This document shows, piece by piece, positions 47,711-64,000 of a stretch of DNA of 64,000 nt. The stretch is taken from IMG/VR virus record IMGVR_UViG_3300021197_001931, positions 64,001 to 128,000 of that record; one strand, written 5' to 3'. The notes beneath the pieces are model-generated. The model ran no database searches. It worked only from the letters and a program-made list of their open reading frames with translations, and was not told where the DNA came from. This DNA comes from a virus. The position numbers and the translations under genes are program-made. How positions within the stretch are numbered: the stretch's first letter is position 1; each line of letters starts with the position of its first letter.

Positions 47711-48903
47711 TGATTTTCCAAACACTCGATAACAAAAGGGAGTGTGTCGGTGTATTTCTCAATGGAGAACTACATTTTGATAACGTTCCTGATAATCTTA
47801 CTCGTACATGGTCTTATTCTTCGTTTCTAGAGGACTATGATGGTATCGAATATGCATTCCTGTATGCTAAGAGGCCCCTAGACGAGGCGTGCCCCAGACA
47901 CTTGGGTGATGAGTGGGATTCCATCAACAATCGCCTCAAAGCGTTTCTTACGGCCTTTAAGGAGTCTAAAATAGATTTGTCCAAAAACTGCTTTTTTGAC
48001 CTAGTTCCCCAGAAGTTTCTAAAGCAATACTGCTCTGTTCGCAACAAGATTACTGAGTATGTGATAAACAATTATCACAAACCAGAAAACTACGATTTTT
48101 TGGTAAACCTAGCAAAAATTACGCATGACATGAAGTTTAGGGATTTGAATATTGATAAAACTGAATTGCGTGACCTAATGCACGAGGAGAAAACTAGAAA
48201 ATTTGCTTATAAGCTGGGTCACATCTCACATTCTTGCAATTATAATATTTTTGGAACAAAGACAGGCAGATTGACCACCAAGAAGAACAGTTTTCCTATA
48301 CTTACAATGGATAAGAGATATAGAAAAATTATCAAGCCAACAAACGATTGGTTTGTATCTCTAGATTTTAATGGCGCTGAACTAAGAACTTTTCTAGCAC
48401 TCGCAGGAATTAGCCAGCCAGATGTAGATGTACATGAGTGGAATCGCATCAATGCTTATAATGAAGTTGGTAGCCGGAAAGAGGTAAAGGAAAGGTTTTT
48501 TGCGTGGCTTTACAATATGGAATCCAAGGATTACCTTTCTCATAGAATTTACGGCAAAAGTAGAGAAAAGGTCATAGAAGAGTATTATCAAAACAACAGC
48601 ATTACAAATCCCTTTGGCAGGTCTATTTCAGCAGACGATTATCATGCCATGAGTTATCTAATTCAAAGCACTTGTTCGGATGTTGTGCTGCGACAAATGA
48701 TTAAGTTGAACAAATACTTGCAGGATAAGGATTCTTTTGTTGCATTTTGTGTGCATGATGAAGTAGTCTTGGACCTTACCGATGTTGAGTGTAAGCTAAT
48801 CAATGTTTTGGTTGAATATTTTACAAATACGCCTTTAGGAAATTTTAAAGTTAATGTAAACTATGGCAAGAATTATGGAGAAATGAGAGAATGGATTCAA
48901 TAA
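47710..48903 (+). CDS. minimal family A DNA polymerase
   Basis: TKTGRLT; motif A LDFNGAELR; motif B RKEVKERFFAWLY; YLIQST; motif C VHDEV. Confidence 0.85.
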   Translation: MIFQTLDNKRECVGVFLNGELHFDNVPDNLTRTWSYSSFLEDYDGIEYAFLYAKRPLDEACPRHLGDEWDSINNRLKAFLTAFKESKIDLSKNCFFDLVPQKFLKQYCSVRNKITEYVINNYHKPENYDFLVNLAKITHDMKFRDLNIDKTELRDLMHEEKTRKFAYKLGHISHSCNYNIFGTKTGRLTTKKNSFPILTMDKRYRKIIKPTNDWFVSLDFNGAELRTFLALAGISQPDVDVHEWNRINAYNEVGSRKEVKERFFAWLYNMESKDYLSHRIYGKSREKVIEEYYQNNSITNPFGRSISADDYHAMSYLIQSTCSDVVLRQMIKLNKYLQDKDSFVAFCVHDEVVLDLTDVECKLINVLVEYFTNTPLGNFKVNVNYGKNYGEMREWIQ

Positions 48904-49724
48904 TCGGATTAGGTGCAGCGGGTTGTAGAATAGCTGATAAATTCTCTCAATACCCTCAATATGATATTTATAAGATGGATGTCGGCCTCAAAAGAACTCC
49001 AAGAACATATGGCATAAAAAAAGCCAGCACCCCCGAAGAGTTTGAGCAATCAATCGGCAGCCTTAAGAGATTCTTCAAGCCGTTACAGGGTGAAGTTTTA
49101 TTTGTTGTTGGAGCTTCTGGCTTTGTTTCTGGTGCTTCTTTGAGGATTCTTGAACAAATAAAATCACACGACACTTCGATCTTGTGCGTTTGTTCAGACC
49201 CAGAATTACTAGGTGAGATGGATAAGATGCAACAGCGCTTAACTATAAATGTGTTTCAGCAATATGCTAGATCTGGAGTTTTTAATAAAGTGGTGTTGGC
49301 CTACAACAATCAGCTTGAAGATATTTTGGGAGATATTCCAGTGATAGGCTTTTATGACAAGTTGAATGATTTACTTATTTCTACAATTAATATCATAAAT
49401 GTGCTTGACCGCTCTGATAGTATTATGGATAATATTTCATCACCGCATGAGGTTAGTAGGCTGTGCACCTATGGAATCGTTGATTTTCAAACAGGGGAAG
49501 AGAAACTATTTTTTCCTGTTGACAGCGTTAGGGAAAAGGTCTATTATTATGCCATCAATGAGGAGAAATTAAGAGAGTCGAGCGATATTCGCAAGAAAAT
49601 AATTTCTCAAGTTAAGGAGAATTCTGTTGACACGAAGGTATCATATGGAATATACTCTACTCAATACGAAGAAGACTACGTTTATTGCGTAGCATATTCT
49701 TCAACGATACAACAATTAGATTAA
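48891..49724 (+). CDS. divergent tubulin/FtsZ-like protein
   Basis: IIGLGAAGCRIA matches the FtsZ N-terminal loop; signature loop degenerate (GASGFVSGA); NNQL and YDKLN-like blocks. Confidence 0.65.
   Translation: MDSIIGLGAAGCRIADKFSQYPQYDIYKMDVGLKRTPRTYGIKKASTPEEFEQSIGSLKRFFKPLQGEVLFVVGASGFVSGASLRILEQIKSHDTSILCVCSDPELLGEMDKMQQRLTINVFQQYARSGVFNKVVLAYNNQLEDILGDIPVIGFYDKLNDLLISTINIINVLDRSDSIMDNISSPHEVSRLCTYGIVDFQTGEEKLFFPVDSVREKVYYYAINEEKLRESSDIRKKIISQVKENSVDTKVSYGIYSTQYEEDYVYCVAYSSTIQQLD
49519..49547 (+). promoter_or_regulatory. sigma70-like promoter P1 for ssb
   Basis: TTGACA-N17-TATTAT. Confidence 0.65.
49627..49656 (+). promoter_or_regulatory. sigma70-like promoter P2 for ssb
   Basis: TTGACA-N18-TATACT. 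Confidence 0.65.
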
Positions 49725-49772
49725 CCAGAAGTTGGGGATATTTGCCCAATTTACTATACAAGGAGAAAAATA

Positions 49773-50528
49773 ATGGGAATCAATCTAGACAAAATGCGAG
49801 AGAAGCTTGCCGCAGTTCAGAACCGTGGTGATTCAAGTAAGAGTGCTTTCTGGCGTCCAGTGGACGGCGACCAGACTATTCGAATTATTCCAACAGAGGA
49901 TGGAGACCCTTTCAAGGAGGTATATTTTCACTATAATGTAGCTAAGGGTGGAATTGTTTGTCCAAAGCGTAACTATGGTGATGACTGTCCGATTTGCGAG
50001 TTTGGATCAAAGCTGTGGCGTGAAGGGTCAGATAACAACGATGATGCTTCAAAGAGGATGGCAAAGAGCCTGTTTGCAAGGCAGCGATTCTTTAGCCCTG
50101 TAATGGTGCGAGGAGAAGAGCAAGAAGGTCCCCGATGGTGGGGCTATGGCAAGATGGCCTATGAGACACTTCTCAGCCTTGTTCTAAATCCTGATTATGG
50201 GGATATCACTGACCCAGAAGAAGGAACCGACCTTGTTCTTAGTTACGGCAAGCCACCTGGTGCTTCGTTCCCGCAAACAAAGATCCAGCCTCGACGTAGG
50301 ACTTCTCTCATGATGGAAGACGAAAACACAATTGCTGCAACTCTAAGCGCTATTCCGGACGTTGAACAGCTTTTTGAACGTAAGTCGACCCAAGAGGTCC
50401 AGGCGATACTTGACGAGTTTATGTCTAAGGACGTAGATGCGGAGGCCTCATCTTCGGAATCTGTTCACTATGGCAAGAACAGCGGAAATTCTGTTGATCA
50501 GGCATTTAAAGAGCTAATGAACGCATAG
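49773..50528 (+). CDS. single-stranded DNA-binding protein (gp32-like)
   Basis: FWRP, IRIIP, HY...CP...CPIC, DITDPEEGTD; acidic tail. Confidence 0.88.
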   Translation: MGINLDKMREKLAAVQNRGDSSKSAFWRPVDGDQTIRIIPTEDGDPFKEVYFHYNVAKGGIVCPKRNYGDDCPICEFGSKLWREGSDNNDDASKRMAKSLFARQRFFSPVMVRGEEQEGPRWWGYGKMAYETLLSLVLNPDYGDITDPEEGTDLVLSYGKPPGASFPQTKIQPRRRTSLMMEDENTIAATLSAIPDVEQLFERKSTQEVQAILDEFMSKDVDAEASSSESVHYGKNSGNSVDQAFKELMNA

Positions 50529-50546
50529 TTCAAACACATTTGACTT

Positions 50547-50570
50547 GGGGCCCAGAGGGCCCCTTGTCTT
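50547..50570 (+). terminator. GC hairpin between ssb and recA (weak terminator or processing site)
   Basis: GGGGCCC-AGA-GGGCCCC followed by TTGTCTT. Confidence 0.5.
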
Positions 50571-50579
50571 GGAGGGATA

Positions 50580-51695
50580 ATGGCAAGAGCGAGAAAAGTA
50601 AAAACTGGTAAGTTGTCAATGGATGAGATGCGTGGCTTGATTAATAAGCAGGCTGGCTGCGAGGTGGCGTTTAATTTAAATGAGGATAATCCCACAGAGG
50701 TAGAGGAGTGGATCCCAACTGGATCTAGGTGGCTTGATTCTATTGTTTGTCGAGGGCGTCTGGCAGGTATCCCGGTCGGTAAAGTAATTGAAATTGCCGG
50801 ATTAGAGGCCACAGGCAAATCATATATGGCTGCCCAGGTAGCAGCCAATGCTCAAAAGATGGGGATTGATGTTTTCTACTTTGATTCTGAATCAGCAATT
50901 GATCCAACTTTTCTAGTTCGATCAGGATGTGATCTGGACAATATGATGTATGTTCAGGCCTCATCAGTTGAGTTTGTGTTAGAAACCATAGAGATGCTCT
51001 TGTCGTCTAATGACAATAAGATGTTATTTATCTGGGACTCTTTAGCATTAACACCAGCTATTAGTGATATTGAGGGTGATTTTAATCCTCAATCTTCAAT
51101 GGCCATGAAGGCTAGAATTTTGTCCAAAGGTATGGCCAAATTGACACAGCCGATTGCTAATTCGAAATCAACATTTCTTGTGCTTAACCAGCTAAAGTCA
51201 AACATTACTAGAGTGGCTGCTGAAGCTCTAACTACTCCATATGTTACTCCTGGTGGTAAGTCTATGATTTACGCCTACTCCCTTAGAATTTGGCTAACGG
51301 GCCGCAAAGCTAAGAAGAGTTTTGTAGTGGATGAGAATGGGTTTAGAGTCGGAAGTGAGGTAAAAGTAAAGTTAGAAAAATCAAGGTTTGGAACCCAAGG
51401 GAGACAGTGCACTTTCAAAATTCTTTGGGGAGACGAGATTGGTATTCAGGATGATGAAAGTCTCTTTGAAGCTATTAAGTCTTCAAAGTACCTAGATCAA
51501 CGTGGTGCCTGGTATGAGTTGGATATGGGCAACGATACCAAAGAAAAATTTCAATCATCAAAGTGGGTTGAACTTATGCAAAATGATTCGTTTAAGCAGA
51601 GAGTTCACAACATAATGGATGAAGAGATTATTTTTAATTTTGAAAAACGAGAGGGAAGCGCAGAGGACTACTATAATATTGATCCCGAAGAGTAG
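50580..51695 (+). CDS. recA: RecA/UvsX recombinase
   Basis: IPTGS, GLEATGKS, DSE, IWDS, NQL, TPGG. Confidence 0.95.
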   Translation: MARARKVKTGKLSMDEMRGLINKQAGCEVAFNLNEDNPTEVEEWIPTGSRWLDSIVCRGRLAGIPVGKVIEIAGLEATGKSYMAAQVAANAQKMGIDVFYFDSESAIDPTFLVRSGCDLDNMMYVQASSVEFVLETIEMLLSSNDNKMLFIWDSLALTPAISDIEGDFNPQSSMAMKARILSKGMAKLTQPIANSKSTFLVLNQLKSNITRVAAEALTTPYVTPGGKSMIYAYSLRIWLTGRKAKKSFVVDENGFRVGSEVKVKLEKSRFGTQGRQCTFKILWGDEIGIQDDESLFEAIKSSKYLDQRGAWYELDMGNDTKEKFQSSKWVELMQNDSFKQRVHNIMDEEIIFNFEKREGSAEDYYNIDPEE

Positions 51696-51706
51696 TCTAA
51701 AAAGCG

Positions 51707-51756
51707 TTGACTTCACCCCCTCCTTGATGTATATTACATGCATATCAAGGAGGGGG
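51707..51756 (+). promoter_or_regulatory. sigma70-like promoter inside an RBS-sequestering inverted repeat
   Basis: TTGACT-N17-TATATT; perfect 13-bp arms at 51716-51728 and 51744-51756. Confidence 0.8.
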
Positions 51757-51757
51757 C

Positions 51758-52153
51758 ATGGTTATTTCCGGCAGACACAAGAGACATATTAAGTTGGCCA
51801 AGAGGGTCGCATATCAGTCTGATTTCCACGAGTATCGTCATGGCGCAGTTCTGGTAAAGGGCAATCGTGTACTAAATACATCAGCAAACAAGAATAGCTA
51901 TAAGCTATGGGGACAAAGGTTCCGCCACCGTGATTGTGGATACGCTACCCATCACGCAGAACTTGGATGTATTCTTGGCGTCGACAGGTCTATCACCCAA
52001 GGTGCAACAGTTTATGTAGCCCGTATCGGCAAGAAGGGGGAGTTTAGAATGTCTAAGCCCTGTTCGATGTGCGAATCAGCCATGAGACACGTAGGCATCA
52101 AAAAGGTTGTATACACTGTTGATGAAGAAGAGATTGGTTCCTTTAAGCTATGA
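51758..52153 (+). CDS. zinc-dependent cytidine/dCMP deaminase-family protein
   Basis: HGAVLV, HAE, SKPCSMC. Confidence 0.88.
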   Translation: MVISGRHKRHIKLAKRVAYQSDFHEYRHGAVLVKGNRVLNTSANKNSYKLWGQRFRHRDCGYATHHAELGCILGVDRSITQGATVYVARIGKKGEFRMSKPCSMCESAMRHVGIKKVVYTVDEEEIGSFKL

Positions 52154-53106
52154 AGAGAGTTTTGATAATCGATGGCCTCAATTCTTATTATAGAGCTTAT
52201 ATTTGTGACCCCAGTGTTTCATCCCATGGCCAGCCTATAGGGGGTATAAAGGGGTTTATCAAAATTCTACAGAGAATGTGCCGCGAGGTAAAACCTGATA
52301 GAATTGTAATTTGTTGGGATGGTCCTGGTGGGAGTAGAAAAAGGCGCACACAGAATAAAAACTATAAATCAGGAAGAAAGCCAATAAAGCTAAACAGAAA
52401 TATACATGTTTTGTCTGTGGACGAAGAGCTAGAAAACAAAGTCTGGCAACAAACAGAGCTAGTAGACATGTTAAACGATATGCCGGTAATTCAACTTTTA
52501 TTTCCAGAGGTTGAGGCTGACGATATTATAAGCTGTGTTGCTCAGGCACCGGTGTTCTCAGGTTGGCAAAAAATCATTGTATCGTCCGATAAAGACTTTA
52601 TTCAACTATGTGATGACGATGTAATACTTTACAGGCCGTCACAAAAACAAATTTTAAATAAGCCAAGAATTATCGAGACTTACGGAATTCATCCAACTAA
52701 TTTTGCCCTAGCTAGAGCTATCGCAGGAGACCCTAGCGACAACATAAAGGGCGTGCAAGGCGTGGGTTTAACCACAGTATCAAAAAGATTTGTTTTTCTG
52801 AAAGAGGAAAAGTCTTTTACTTTTAAAGACATATATGATTTTTGCGATGAAGTAGAGAAAAAACTTAAGGTTCATACGTCTATTTTAGAGAACAAAAAGG
52901 TAATAGAAAATAATTATAAACTGATGCAGCTTTACTCTCCATCGATATCGGTCCAGAGTAGAAAAAAAGTAAATTATATACTTGAGAACGCAGACTTGTC
53001 TTTTAATAAAACAGCCATTATGAAGACAATGTATGGAATAGGATTCGGCGAATTAAACTGGTCGGATCTTTCCACAACCTTAAGAAGAATTTCGGTTGAA
53101 AAGTAA
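52150..53106 (+). CDS. 5'-3' exonuclease (Pol I N-terminal / T4 RNase H-like)
   Basis: LIIDG, YKSGR, EADD, SSDKD, GDPSDNIKGV. Confidence 0.93.
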   Translation: MKRVLIIDGLNSYYRAYICDPSVSSHGQPIGGIKGFIKILQRMCREVKPDRIVICWDGPGGSRKRRTQNKNYKSGRKPIKLNRNIHVLSVDEELENKVWQQTELVDMLNDMPVIQLLFPEVEADDIISCVAQAPVFSGWQKIIVSSDKDFIQLCDDDVILYRPSQKQILNKPRIIETYGIHPTNFALARAIAGDPSDNIKGVQGVGLTTVSKRFVFLKEEKSFTFKDIYDFCDEVEKKLKVHTSILENKKVIENNYKLMQLYSPSISVQSRKKVNYILENADLSFNKTAIMKTMYGIGFGELNWSDLSTTLRRISVEK

Positions 53107-63481: not shown

Positions 63482-64000
63482 ATGAGTAAAATAAGAGAAT
63501 TCATTATTGAAAGCAAGAAGCACGGAAAACATACTATACTGATTGATGAAGAGGACTGGGAGAAGGTTTCTCAGCACAAGTGGTGCATAGATGCTACGGC
63601 TAGGAGAAACAGTCGTGGAGGGTTTTACGCAAAGACCTCCATCCTACACCCAGACGGGGGGTGGTATGACAACCCAACTAGTGGTCGCGGACGCAGACGA
63701 ACATCAATGTTCCTGCATCGCTTTCTGATGAATCCACCCCCAGGCTATATGGTCGACCATATAAACCATAATGGGCTGGACAACAGAAGGGAAAATCTAC
63801 GTATTTGCACGCGGGTAGAGAACGGACGTAATAGACTTCCTTCAAAGAAGACCGCTTCTGGCTATAAAGGAGTTAGAAGAAACGGCAGCGATAATTGCTG
63901 GCAGGCTAAGATCAATATAGATAAAAAACAAACATATATAGGCTCCTTTGCAACGGCAGAGGAAGCAGCCTTAGCTTATGACAAAGTGGCGATTAAAGAG
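63482..64000 (+). CDS. HNH endonuclease with AP2 domain (3'-truncated, absent from the ORF track)
   Basis: LHRFLM...VDHINHNGLDNRRENLR; SGYKGV...WQAKI...YIGSFATAEEAALAYD. Confidence 0.9.
   Translation, partial: MSKIREFIIESKKHGKHTILIDEEDWEKVSQHKWCIDATARRNSRGGFYAKTSILHPDGGWYDNPTSGRGRRRTSMFLHRFLMNPPPGYMVDHINHNGLDNRRENLRICTRVENGRNRLPSKKTASGYKGVRRNGSDNCWQAKINIDKKQTYIGSFATAEEAALAYDKVAIKE

Follow-up and report, generated by a model that had tools for sequence, protein, structure and literature searches.

What does a promoter do inside a hairpin, and which of the genes behind it does such an arrangement serve? The question is raised by a phage locus at which a sigma70-type promoter, an inverted repeat and the Shine-Dalgarno sequence (SD) of a deaminase gene overlap. 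The window, i.e., the whole stretch of 64,000 nucleotides that was analysed, comprises bases 64,001–128,000 of a 161.7-kb viral record (~72% complete). T4-like head and tail-sheath genes are present in this genome, and structural genes lie upstream of the replication block on the same strand. The block is almost all on the plus strand, as is every element from ssb to the exonuclease described below, and it contains genes for a small PolA, ssb, recA, the deaminase, a 5′–3′ exonuclease, a helicase, ribonucleotide reductase, ThyX and DnaE. Between the small PolA and ssb a 277-aa protein is encoded (48891–49724), which looks tubulin/FtsZ-like by eye and has no family match in Pfam, PHROG or NCBIfam; an HNH-AP2 homing-type endonuclease (63482–64000) lies directly 3′ of dnaE. 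Elsewhere a PurA/PurZ-like gene (PHROG 1211; L080:658–1647, equal to G000 128057–129049) is found with a dUTPase and an IMPDH/GMPR-like gene nearby.

The hairpin-promoter element in the window

The recA/UvsX gene (50580–51695; PF00154, E=6e-38) stops 20 nt 5′ of the hairpin. An A-tract (51699–51703), probably UP-like, with A at −6 in 28 and at −5 in 36 of 45 representatives, precedes the −35 hexamer TTGACT (51707–51712), which is separated by 17 nt from the −10 hexamer TATATT (51730–51735). A perfect 13-bp repeat (51716–51728 with 51744–51756) is lengthened by G·U and U-A pairs to a 15-bp stem with an 11-nt loop. The 5′ arm (51716–51730), delimited by folding and covariation, is the promoter spacer and would be present as an anti-SD strand only in read-through RNA; the −10 hexamer forms the stem top and part of the loop, and the 3′ arm (51742–51756) holds the SD (AAGGAGG, 51747–51753) with no U-tract after it. 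The stem thus spans the promoter and buries the SD of the gene for a Zn-dependent deaminase of 131 aa (51758–52153; ATG at 51758, motifs HAE and PCxMC). All coordinates given in the initial annotation, i.e., those of the 13-bp repeat, TTGACT at 51707, N17, TATATT at 51730 and the ATG, proved correct, and the SD lies wholly in the second arm, as was said there.

The stem energy is −27.4 kcal/mol (z = −5.7 for 51713–51760), and none of 200 shuffled sequences was equally stable. Opening the deaminase ribosome-binding site, the SD duplex of which is worth −11.9 kcal/mol, takes 26.4 kcal/mol, the highest value in the genome; the mean for 136 genes is 5.6 (sd 3.2). This cost depends on where the RNA begins: it is 22–24 kcal/mol for transcripts that start upstream of 51716 and 5.0 for a start at 51742, so that the two-leader logic proposed at the outset is borne out by folding. 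The promoter match alone is weak evidence, and the support for it comes from conservation in relatives; promoter-pattern matches number 44, with 31 expected. The Rfam search of the element gave no real match.

The 5′–3′ exonuclease gene (52150–53106; PF02739) starts in an ATGA overlap with the deaminase stop. It has neither an SD nor a promoter of its own in the window (SD duplex −2.8 kcal/mol), whereas in most relatives an SD is retained, and its translation is probably coupled to that of the deaminase through the overlap. On the other side, the read-through would originate from the gp32-like ssb (49773–50528; PF08804, E=1e-15), which is preceded by a TTGAC-type promoter in 79 distinct relatives. 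The ssb-recA spacer holds a GC-rich hairpin (50547–50563) recognised in a terminator scan as terminator- or attenuator-like; a hairpin of −12 kcal/mol or stronger is found in all 77 related spacers and a T-rich tail in 61 of them, which suggests graded output along the replication block. In one clade (L103, L104, L107, L263, L309) this ssb-recA hairpin is itself a promoter-in-hairpin with the SD outside. Another hairpin, in the ssb leader (49732–49752), has a conserved GA-ATT loop motif on varying stems in 60 of 116 related ssb leaders and is a candidate operator for autogenous translational control.

We consider it reasonably probable that the element is a cassette which restarts expression and insulates it, heading a (deaminase)-exonuclease operon and making that operon independent of ssb-recA read-through. 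Read-through RNA would carry both arms, fold and bury the deaminase SD in the window, and the folding would probably also silence the coupled exonuclease: as this gene overlaps the deaminase stop and lacks an SD, it probably falls under the gate as well. Initiation by host sigma70 polymerase at about 51742 would produce a 16-nt leader that lacks the 5′ arm and can be translated. The output of the operon would then be set by the cassette promoter and not by the upstream operon. Many relatives have a U-tract after this stem, and there the stem probably also acts as a terminator of transcription.

Pairing and start sites among related loci

Related loci were gathered through deaminase or recA searches, and the counts given here are of related sequences, not of independent events. 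The promoter-in-hairpin geometry is present in 91 of 154 distinct deaminase upstream regions (99 if a TTGCA-type −35 is allowed), the spacer is 17 nt long in 87 of these 91, and on a quick deaminase tree (131 columns) the hairpin is spread throughout. Arm sequence varies among the relatives and pairing is conserved, as the initial annotation had expected of a functional stem. When the arms of 48 divergent representatives were exchanged, native pairs reached −21.7 kcal/mol against −11.2 for swapped ones, and the native arm was the best partner of the 48 in 33 cases; in a nearest-neighbour comparison the pair was kept in 11 of 12 double changes. A weaker pairing excess (4.29 versus 3.67 of 7, with a permutation maximum of 4.09) is also seen for spacer positions opposite bases other than those of the SD. 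Pair counts on a sequence-only MAFFT alignment were equivocal, with slid registers outscoring the window's own, because loop lengths shift the register; the consensus from MAFFT and RNAalifold (4 pairs), in which the arms were misregistered, was set aside and the swap and nearest-neighbour tests were used instead. The covariation is in this way shown computationally.

The same holds for the strand. G·U pairs exceed A·C pairs by 64 to 19, which indicates selection for the structure in sense-strand RNA, and in 41 of 48 representatives it is the sense strand that gives the better fold. Both figures, together with the conservation of pairing and not of arm sequence, speak against a role of the inverted repeat as DNA, be it a repressor operator or a cruciform, even though the repeat overlaps the promoter symmetrically. 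RNase III can cleave long stems, and the repeat might also be a site at which read-through RNA is processed; taken together, a DNA or RNase III function is regarded as very unlikely.

The consequence for ribosome access is also shared: the ribosome site is costlier to open on the long leader in 47 of 49 cases, and the SD lies inside the stem in 43 of the 48 representatives and outside it in L068 and L071. About 14 relatives have neither such a promoter nor the hairpin, or have a deaminase that overlaps recA, and in a homolog from a Streptomyces phage no such hairpin was seen by eye. One clade (L120, L121, L125, L133, L138, L143, L270, L278) keeps a strong hairpin upstream of the deaminase with no recognisable −10, and its members with such a hairpin have an SD-like arm ~20 nt from the deaminase start; the class of hairpins without a promoter includes GC-rich coding sequence, only about eight members being clear. 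In L042–L046, L058 and L059, where the deaminase start overlaps the recA end, a TTGACA-17-TAGAGT match occurs inside recA, which may be a coding coincidence.

The start of the short transcript can be placed with the help of eleven relatives that are leaderless and hairpin-free. Their start codon follows the first T of TTGAC by 35 nt in ten cases and by 36 nt in one, which puts the predicted start of the window at A51742; a purine occupies +35 in 39 of the 48 hairpin representatives. The start near 51742 that had been suggested from the window alone thus agrees with the relatives. For a leaderless gene with no SD, only RNA made from the gene's own promoter is translated, and the leaderless relatives appear to reach the same promoter-of-origin logic without a hairpin. 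On the quick deaminase tree the leaderless state needs three changes, and a single origin is possible.

The operon boundary and its read-through

Which gene the cassette serves can be read from its distribution. The hairpin accompanies 82 of 100 deaminase promoters and 1 of 79 ssb promoters, and the cassette stays beside the deaminase when other genes are inserted after recA. In recA-anchored loci the deaminase follows recA in 4 of 51 and is best regarded as an accessory gene. In 139 of 140 loci with the deaminase, the exonuclease lacks a promoter of its own; among loci without the deaminase, an exonuclease promoter is present in 22 of 51, ten of these being promoter-in-hairpin cassettes, of which at least six have a U-tract with the SD outside the stem and are terminator-like. 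Two cassettes, one before a deaminase (L116) and one before an exonuclease (L198), differ at 2 of the first 46 positions, and in other lineages the cassette also precedes recA and a methylase-like gene. As the cassette can stand before the exonuclease in loci without a deaminase, it is not tied to that gene, and the distribution of promoters and cassettes indicates that it heads the downstream replication operon; the deaminase was inserted into this operon or lost from it. This link to an operon boundary, again a computational result, lends no support to the initial proposal that the gate exists because of the deaminase. The slot just 3′ of recA is variable (L005–L010, L015, L099, L116, L120 and many more) and holds small His/Pro-rich proteins with signal-peptide-like N-termini, often with a CGTCTA motif in front.

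A sigma70 promoter in a stem-loop is already known. The PeSLs (promoter-early stem-loops) of the T4-like phages RB49/phi1, PST and nt-1 consist of an intergenic sigma70-like promoter with an AT-rich upstream region and a stem-loop that blocks upstream transcription, followed by an SD and a start codon; a stem-loop that overlaps the −10 box is a described subclass (PMC2839356; PMC4122927). They recur as sequence-conserved copies in hyperplastic regions and mediate recombination, and their SD is at the 3′ extremity (PMC2839356; PMC4122927). The present cassette resembles them, at the level of sequence, in its intergenic promoter, its AT-rich upstream region and its stable stem-loop overlapping the promoter. 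It differs in being single-copy and fixed at the recA/exonuclease boundary, with pairing and not sequence conserved, in its SD, which is usually the 3′ arm itself, in the absence of a U-tract in the window, and in the leaderless starts that replace it in some lineages. Only 1 of ~25 intergenic TTGAC promoters in the 161.7-kb record carries such a stem, a count that refers to a record ~72% complete and falls short of the repeated copies of PeSLs.

Could the element nevertheless be a pure terminator of the PeSL type, with the overlap of SD and stem due to tight packing and without translational effect? A run of at least three T after a G-run is found in 29 of the 48 representatives, and the T fraction 5′ of the start codon is 0.44, against 0.17 for ssb and 0.19 for recA. 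L068, L071 and the cassettes preceding exonuclease or recA genes, whose SD is not in the stem, point the same way, as does the clade that keeps its hairpins with no recognisable promoter, and termination was demonstrated for a PeSL stem-loop (PMC2839356). Yet the window, L238 and L002/L004/L084 lack a U-tract and their arms are still compensated, and an opening cost of 22–26 kcal/mol must affect any read-through RNA that is made. A terminator and nothing else is therefore improbable as an account of the element. Stems of 15–20 bp with 10-nt loops are long for classical terminators, which also counts against the termination part of the insulator reading. Because neither the window nor its nearest relatives have a U-tract, SD occlusion explains the local case best; across the relatives, the counts of SDs in the stem and of T-runs indicate that occlusion and termination both seem to be used. 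The SD-occlusion switch described in the initial annotation accordingly remains the best reading for the window and is not the whole story for the family, in which many members have a U-tract and some have the SD outside the stem.

The second known system is that of the translation-initiation hairpins of T4 e, soc, 49 and I-TevI and of Aeh1 mobE, in which the SD is sequestered in long transcripts and a short RNA, made from a promoter in the 5′ strand, lacks the inhibitory arm; in T4 the promoters are gp55-dependent late promoters, so that expression is delayed (PMC3014915). The cassette shares with T4 e and soc the sequestration of the SD in long RNA, in silico (22–24 versus 5 kcal/mol), and the promoter in the 5′ strand, from whose predicted start a short RNA without the arm would arise. 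Unlike them it has a host sigma70-type promoter (TTGACT-17-TATATT) and not a late one, and its stem is often terminator-like.

The hairpin may then be a temporal gate and the mirror image of T4 e/soc, blocking late read-through so that the operon is expressed early or in the middle period only. Two classes of promoter seem to exist in the genome. Of 55 plus-strand matches to a candidate late motif, CTA[ATG]TTA, 33 are no more than 120 nt from a gene start (7 expected), and none falls in the replication block. One ORF (G000:34110–34811, E=6e-4) is weakly gp55-like, and the structural genes are upstream on the same strand. A hairpin of T4 polarity with the late motif stands before a protease gene in the same genome, and in some relatives (11 of 76 insert loci) the late motif occurs just 3′ of recA. 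However, the nearest late motif in the window is 12 kb upstream (39682), most read-through should coincide in time because ssb shares the sigma70 promoter class, and the conserved ssb-recA hairpin already steps transcription down. A temporal gate is for these reasons a tentative explanation, clearly less probable than insulation; it is compatible with insulation and possible as an added role. Uncoupling of dose is favoured over timing because ssb has the same promoter class, and on the same ground (79 relatives) the early-only control first proposed for the deaminase is not supported.

Within the window the late motif precedes structural genes at 1384, 3530, 9382, 27565, 31485, 32187, 34856, 37884, 39682 and other positions, and it is enriched only before genes, not across the whole window. 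When the strict motif was used, the supposed association of the hairpin with a nearby late promoter failed to appear (4 of 56 hairpin loci with inserts). The T4-polarity hairpin mentioned above (L321; G000 ~141460–141506) lies before a trypsin-like protease gene whose start ranks second in occlusion in this genome; the candidate late motif is at the loop, and the 3′ arm contains SD and ATG.

The polarity proposed for the cassette has a counterpart in a mobile element. In IS10 a host-polymerase promoter reportedly yields a transcript that can be translated, and read-through RNA is said to hide the ribosome-binding site. The cassette would be alike in that the transcript of its own promoter is translated and read-through is silent; it is unlike in that a mobile element guards against random neighbours, whereas the cassette sits at a fixed phage operon boundary and uses the whole promoter spacer as an arm. 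Protection of the IS10 transposase from external promoters has been reported (Davis, Simons and Kleckner, 1985, cited in PMC13181058). By analogy the cassette would act both like a PeSL and like a T4 e/soc hairpin, but it is a member of neither class as defined. The combination of a spacer that serves as anti-SD arm, an optional U-tract and interchange with leaderless starts at one operon boundary was not found described in the searchable literature.

The deaminase and the natural series of cassettes

The initial annotation took the tight control as a sign of a hazardous enzyme, and it remains to be asked what the protein itself suggests. Its zinc ligands H66, E68, C102 and C105, within HAE and PCxMC, are invariant in 89 sequences. 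The best profile matches are phage dCMP deaminases (E 2e-6 to 6e-6), and in structure comparison the dCMP deaminases of T4 (1vq2) and S-TIM5 (4p9c), with which the HAE and PCxxC zinc ligands are shared, score Z 11–12, although fold scores tie among dCMP, cytidine, guanine and tRNA deaminases. The clades of the CDA/TadA/MafB19 superfamily were defined earlier (PMC3239186), and measured by the definition for dCMP deaminase/ComEB the protein, apart from its zinc ligands, departs at each signature: N44-K-N-S stands for NxxP, G70-C71 for NA and T84...A88 for TxxxT, and there is no Cys at 21–28, where the helix 1-strand 1 Cys would be expected. The TIGR02571 score is 13.9 bits against a cut-off of 219. 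In the model (pLDDT 92) strands 116–120 and 125–130 are joined by four residues, with no helix 4 between them, and 76 of the 89 sequences have 12 residues after Y119. The protein is also strongly basic (net charge +13; family mean +12).

It does not fit TadA either: helix 4 and the two helices after strand 5 are absent, and NF008113 gives 26 bits against a cut-off of 150. The TadA motifs of strand 2 and EPCxMC are present in part, N44 being conserved and PCxMC containing an invariant M104, with K100 in place of the E. Of the MafB19-like series (C-terminal hairpin, N after strand 2, HxE, V in strand 3, G before strand 4) the first features are present and +xxC is absent (S99), and PF14437 is passed with 31.9 bits (cut-off 27); this stand-alone protein between recA and the exonuclease has neither MafB19-like secretion domains nor an adjacent immunity gene, and a weak search found two longer forms. 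As was rightly suspected from the start, it is not a canonical dCMP deaminase, and judged from the model it partly matches the MafB19-like hairpin division. At E up to 1e-10 the family has 1,697 clusters, some of which may belong to neighbouring families. Cellular genomes hardly contain it, distant relatives occur in Streptomyces and Klebsiella phages, and three MAG contigs from unrelated taxa that carry it are probably misbinned phage. No paper on the family was found in a literature search.

A gate that evolved to restrain a hazardous deaminase, i.e., one engaged in RNA or DNA editing, anti-defence or attack on the nucleotide pool, would agree with the missing dCMP-deaminase signatures, the basic charge and the conserved RFR, NK and R89 residues, with a modelled strand-4/strand-5 hairpin, in which it is unlike dCMP deaminases and TadA, with the phage-restricted family and with TTG or GTG starts in nearly half of the hairpin representatives (23 of 48 by the first-start rule). 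Against it stand the cassettes that persist before an exonuclease without deaminase and before recA and other genes, the six loci at which the deaminase start overlaps the recA end with no hairpin, the lack of a PADLOC match, the dCMP deaminases among the best sequence and structure matches, and the neighbouring ThyX, dUTPase and ribonucleotide reductase. Such an origin of the gate is thus unlikely. Equally doubtful is a filter by promoter of origin, exerted through terminator, SD occlusion or leaderless start, that would confine to early infection a basic phage-specific deaminase acting on tRNA, mRNA or ssDNA and not on free nucleotides. A clade with a deaminase overlapping the recA end and no hairpin means that a hazardous enzyme is not implied by the regulation, and the regulation does not decide the substrate. 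Nucleotide or nucleoside salvage has about an even chance, because ThyX, dUTPase and the reductase adjoin; a polynucleotide substrate is somewhat less likely, and the small remainder falls to other substrates.

For the phages concerned this means, first, that a large family annotated as dCMP deaminase or TadA meets neither definition. Second, about 90 sequence-divergent versions of one 50-nt part are at hand, each joining a promoter to an anti-SD hairpin and often to a terminator-like tail, and the leaderless versions within the series mark the start site. In this series PeSL terminator cassettes and T4-type SD hairpins come together as alternative states of a single element, and the series offers a ready natural set for reporter tests as well as a compact insulator design.
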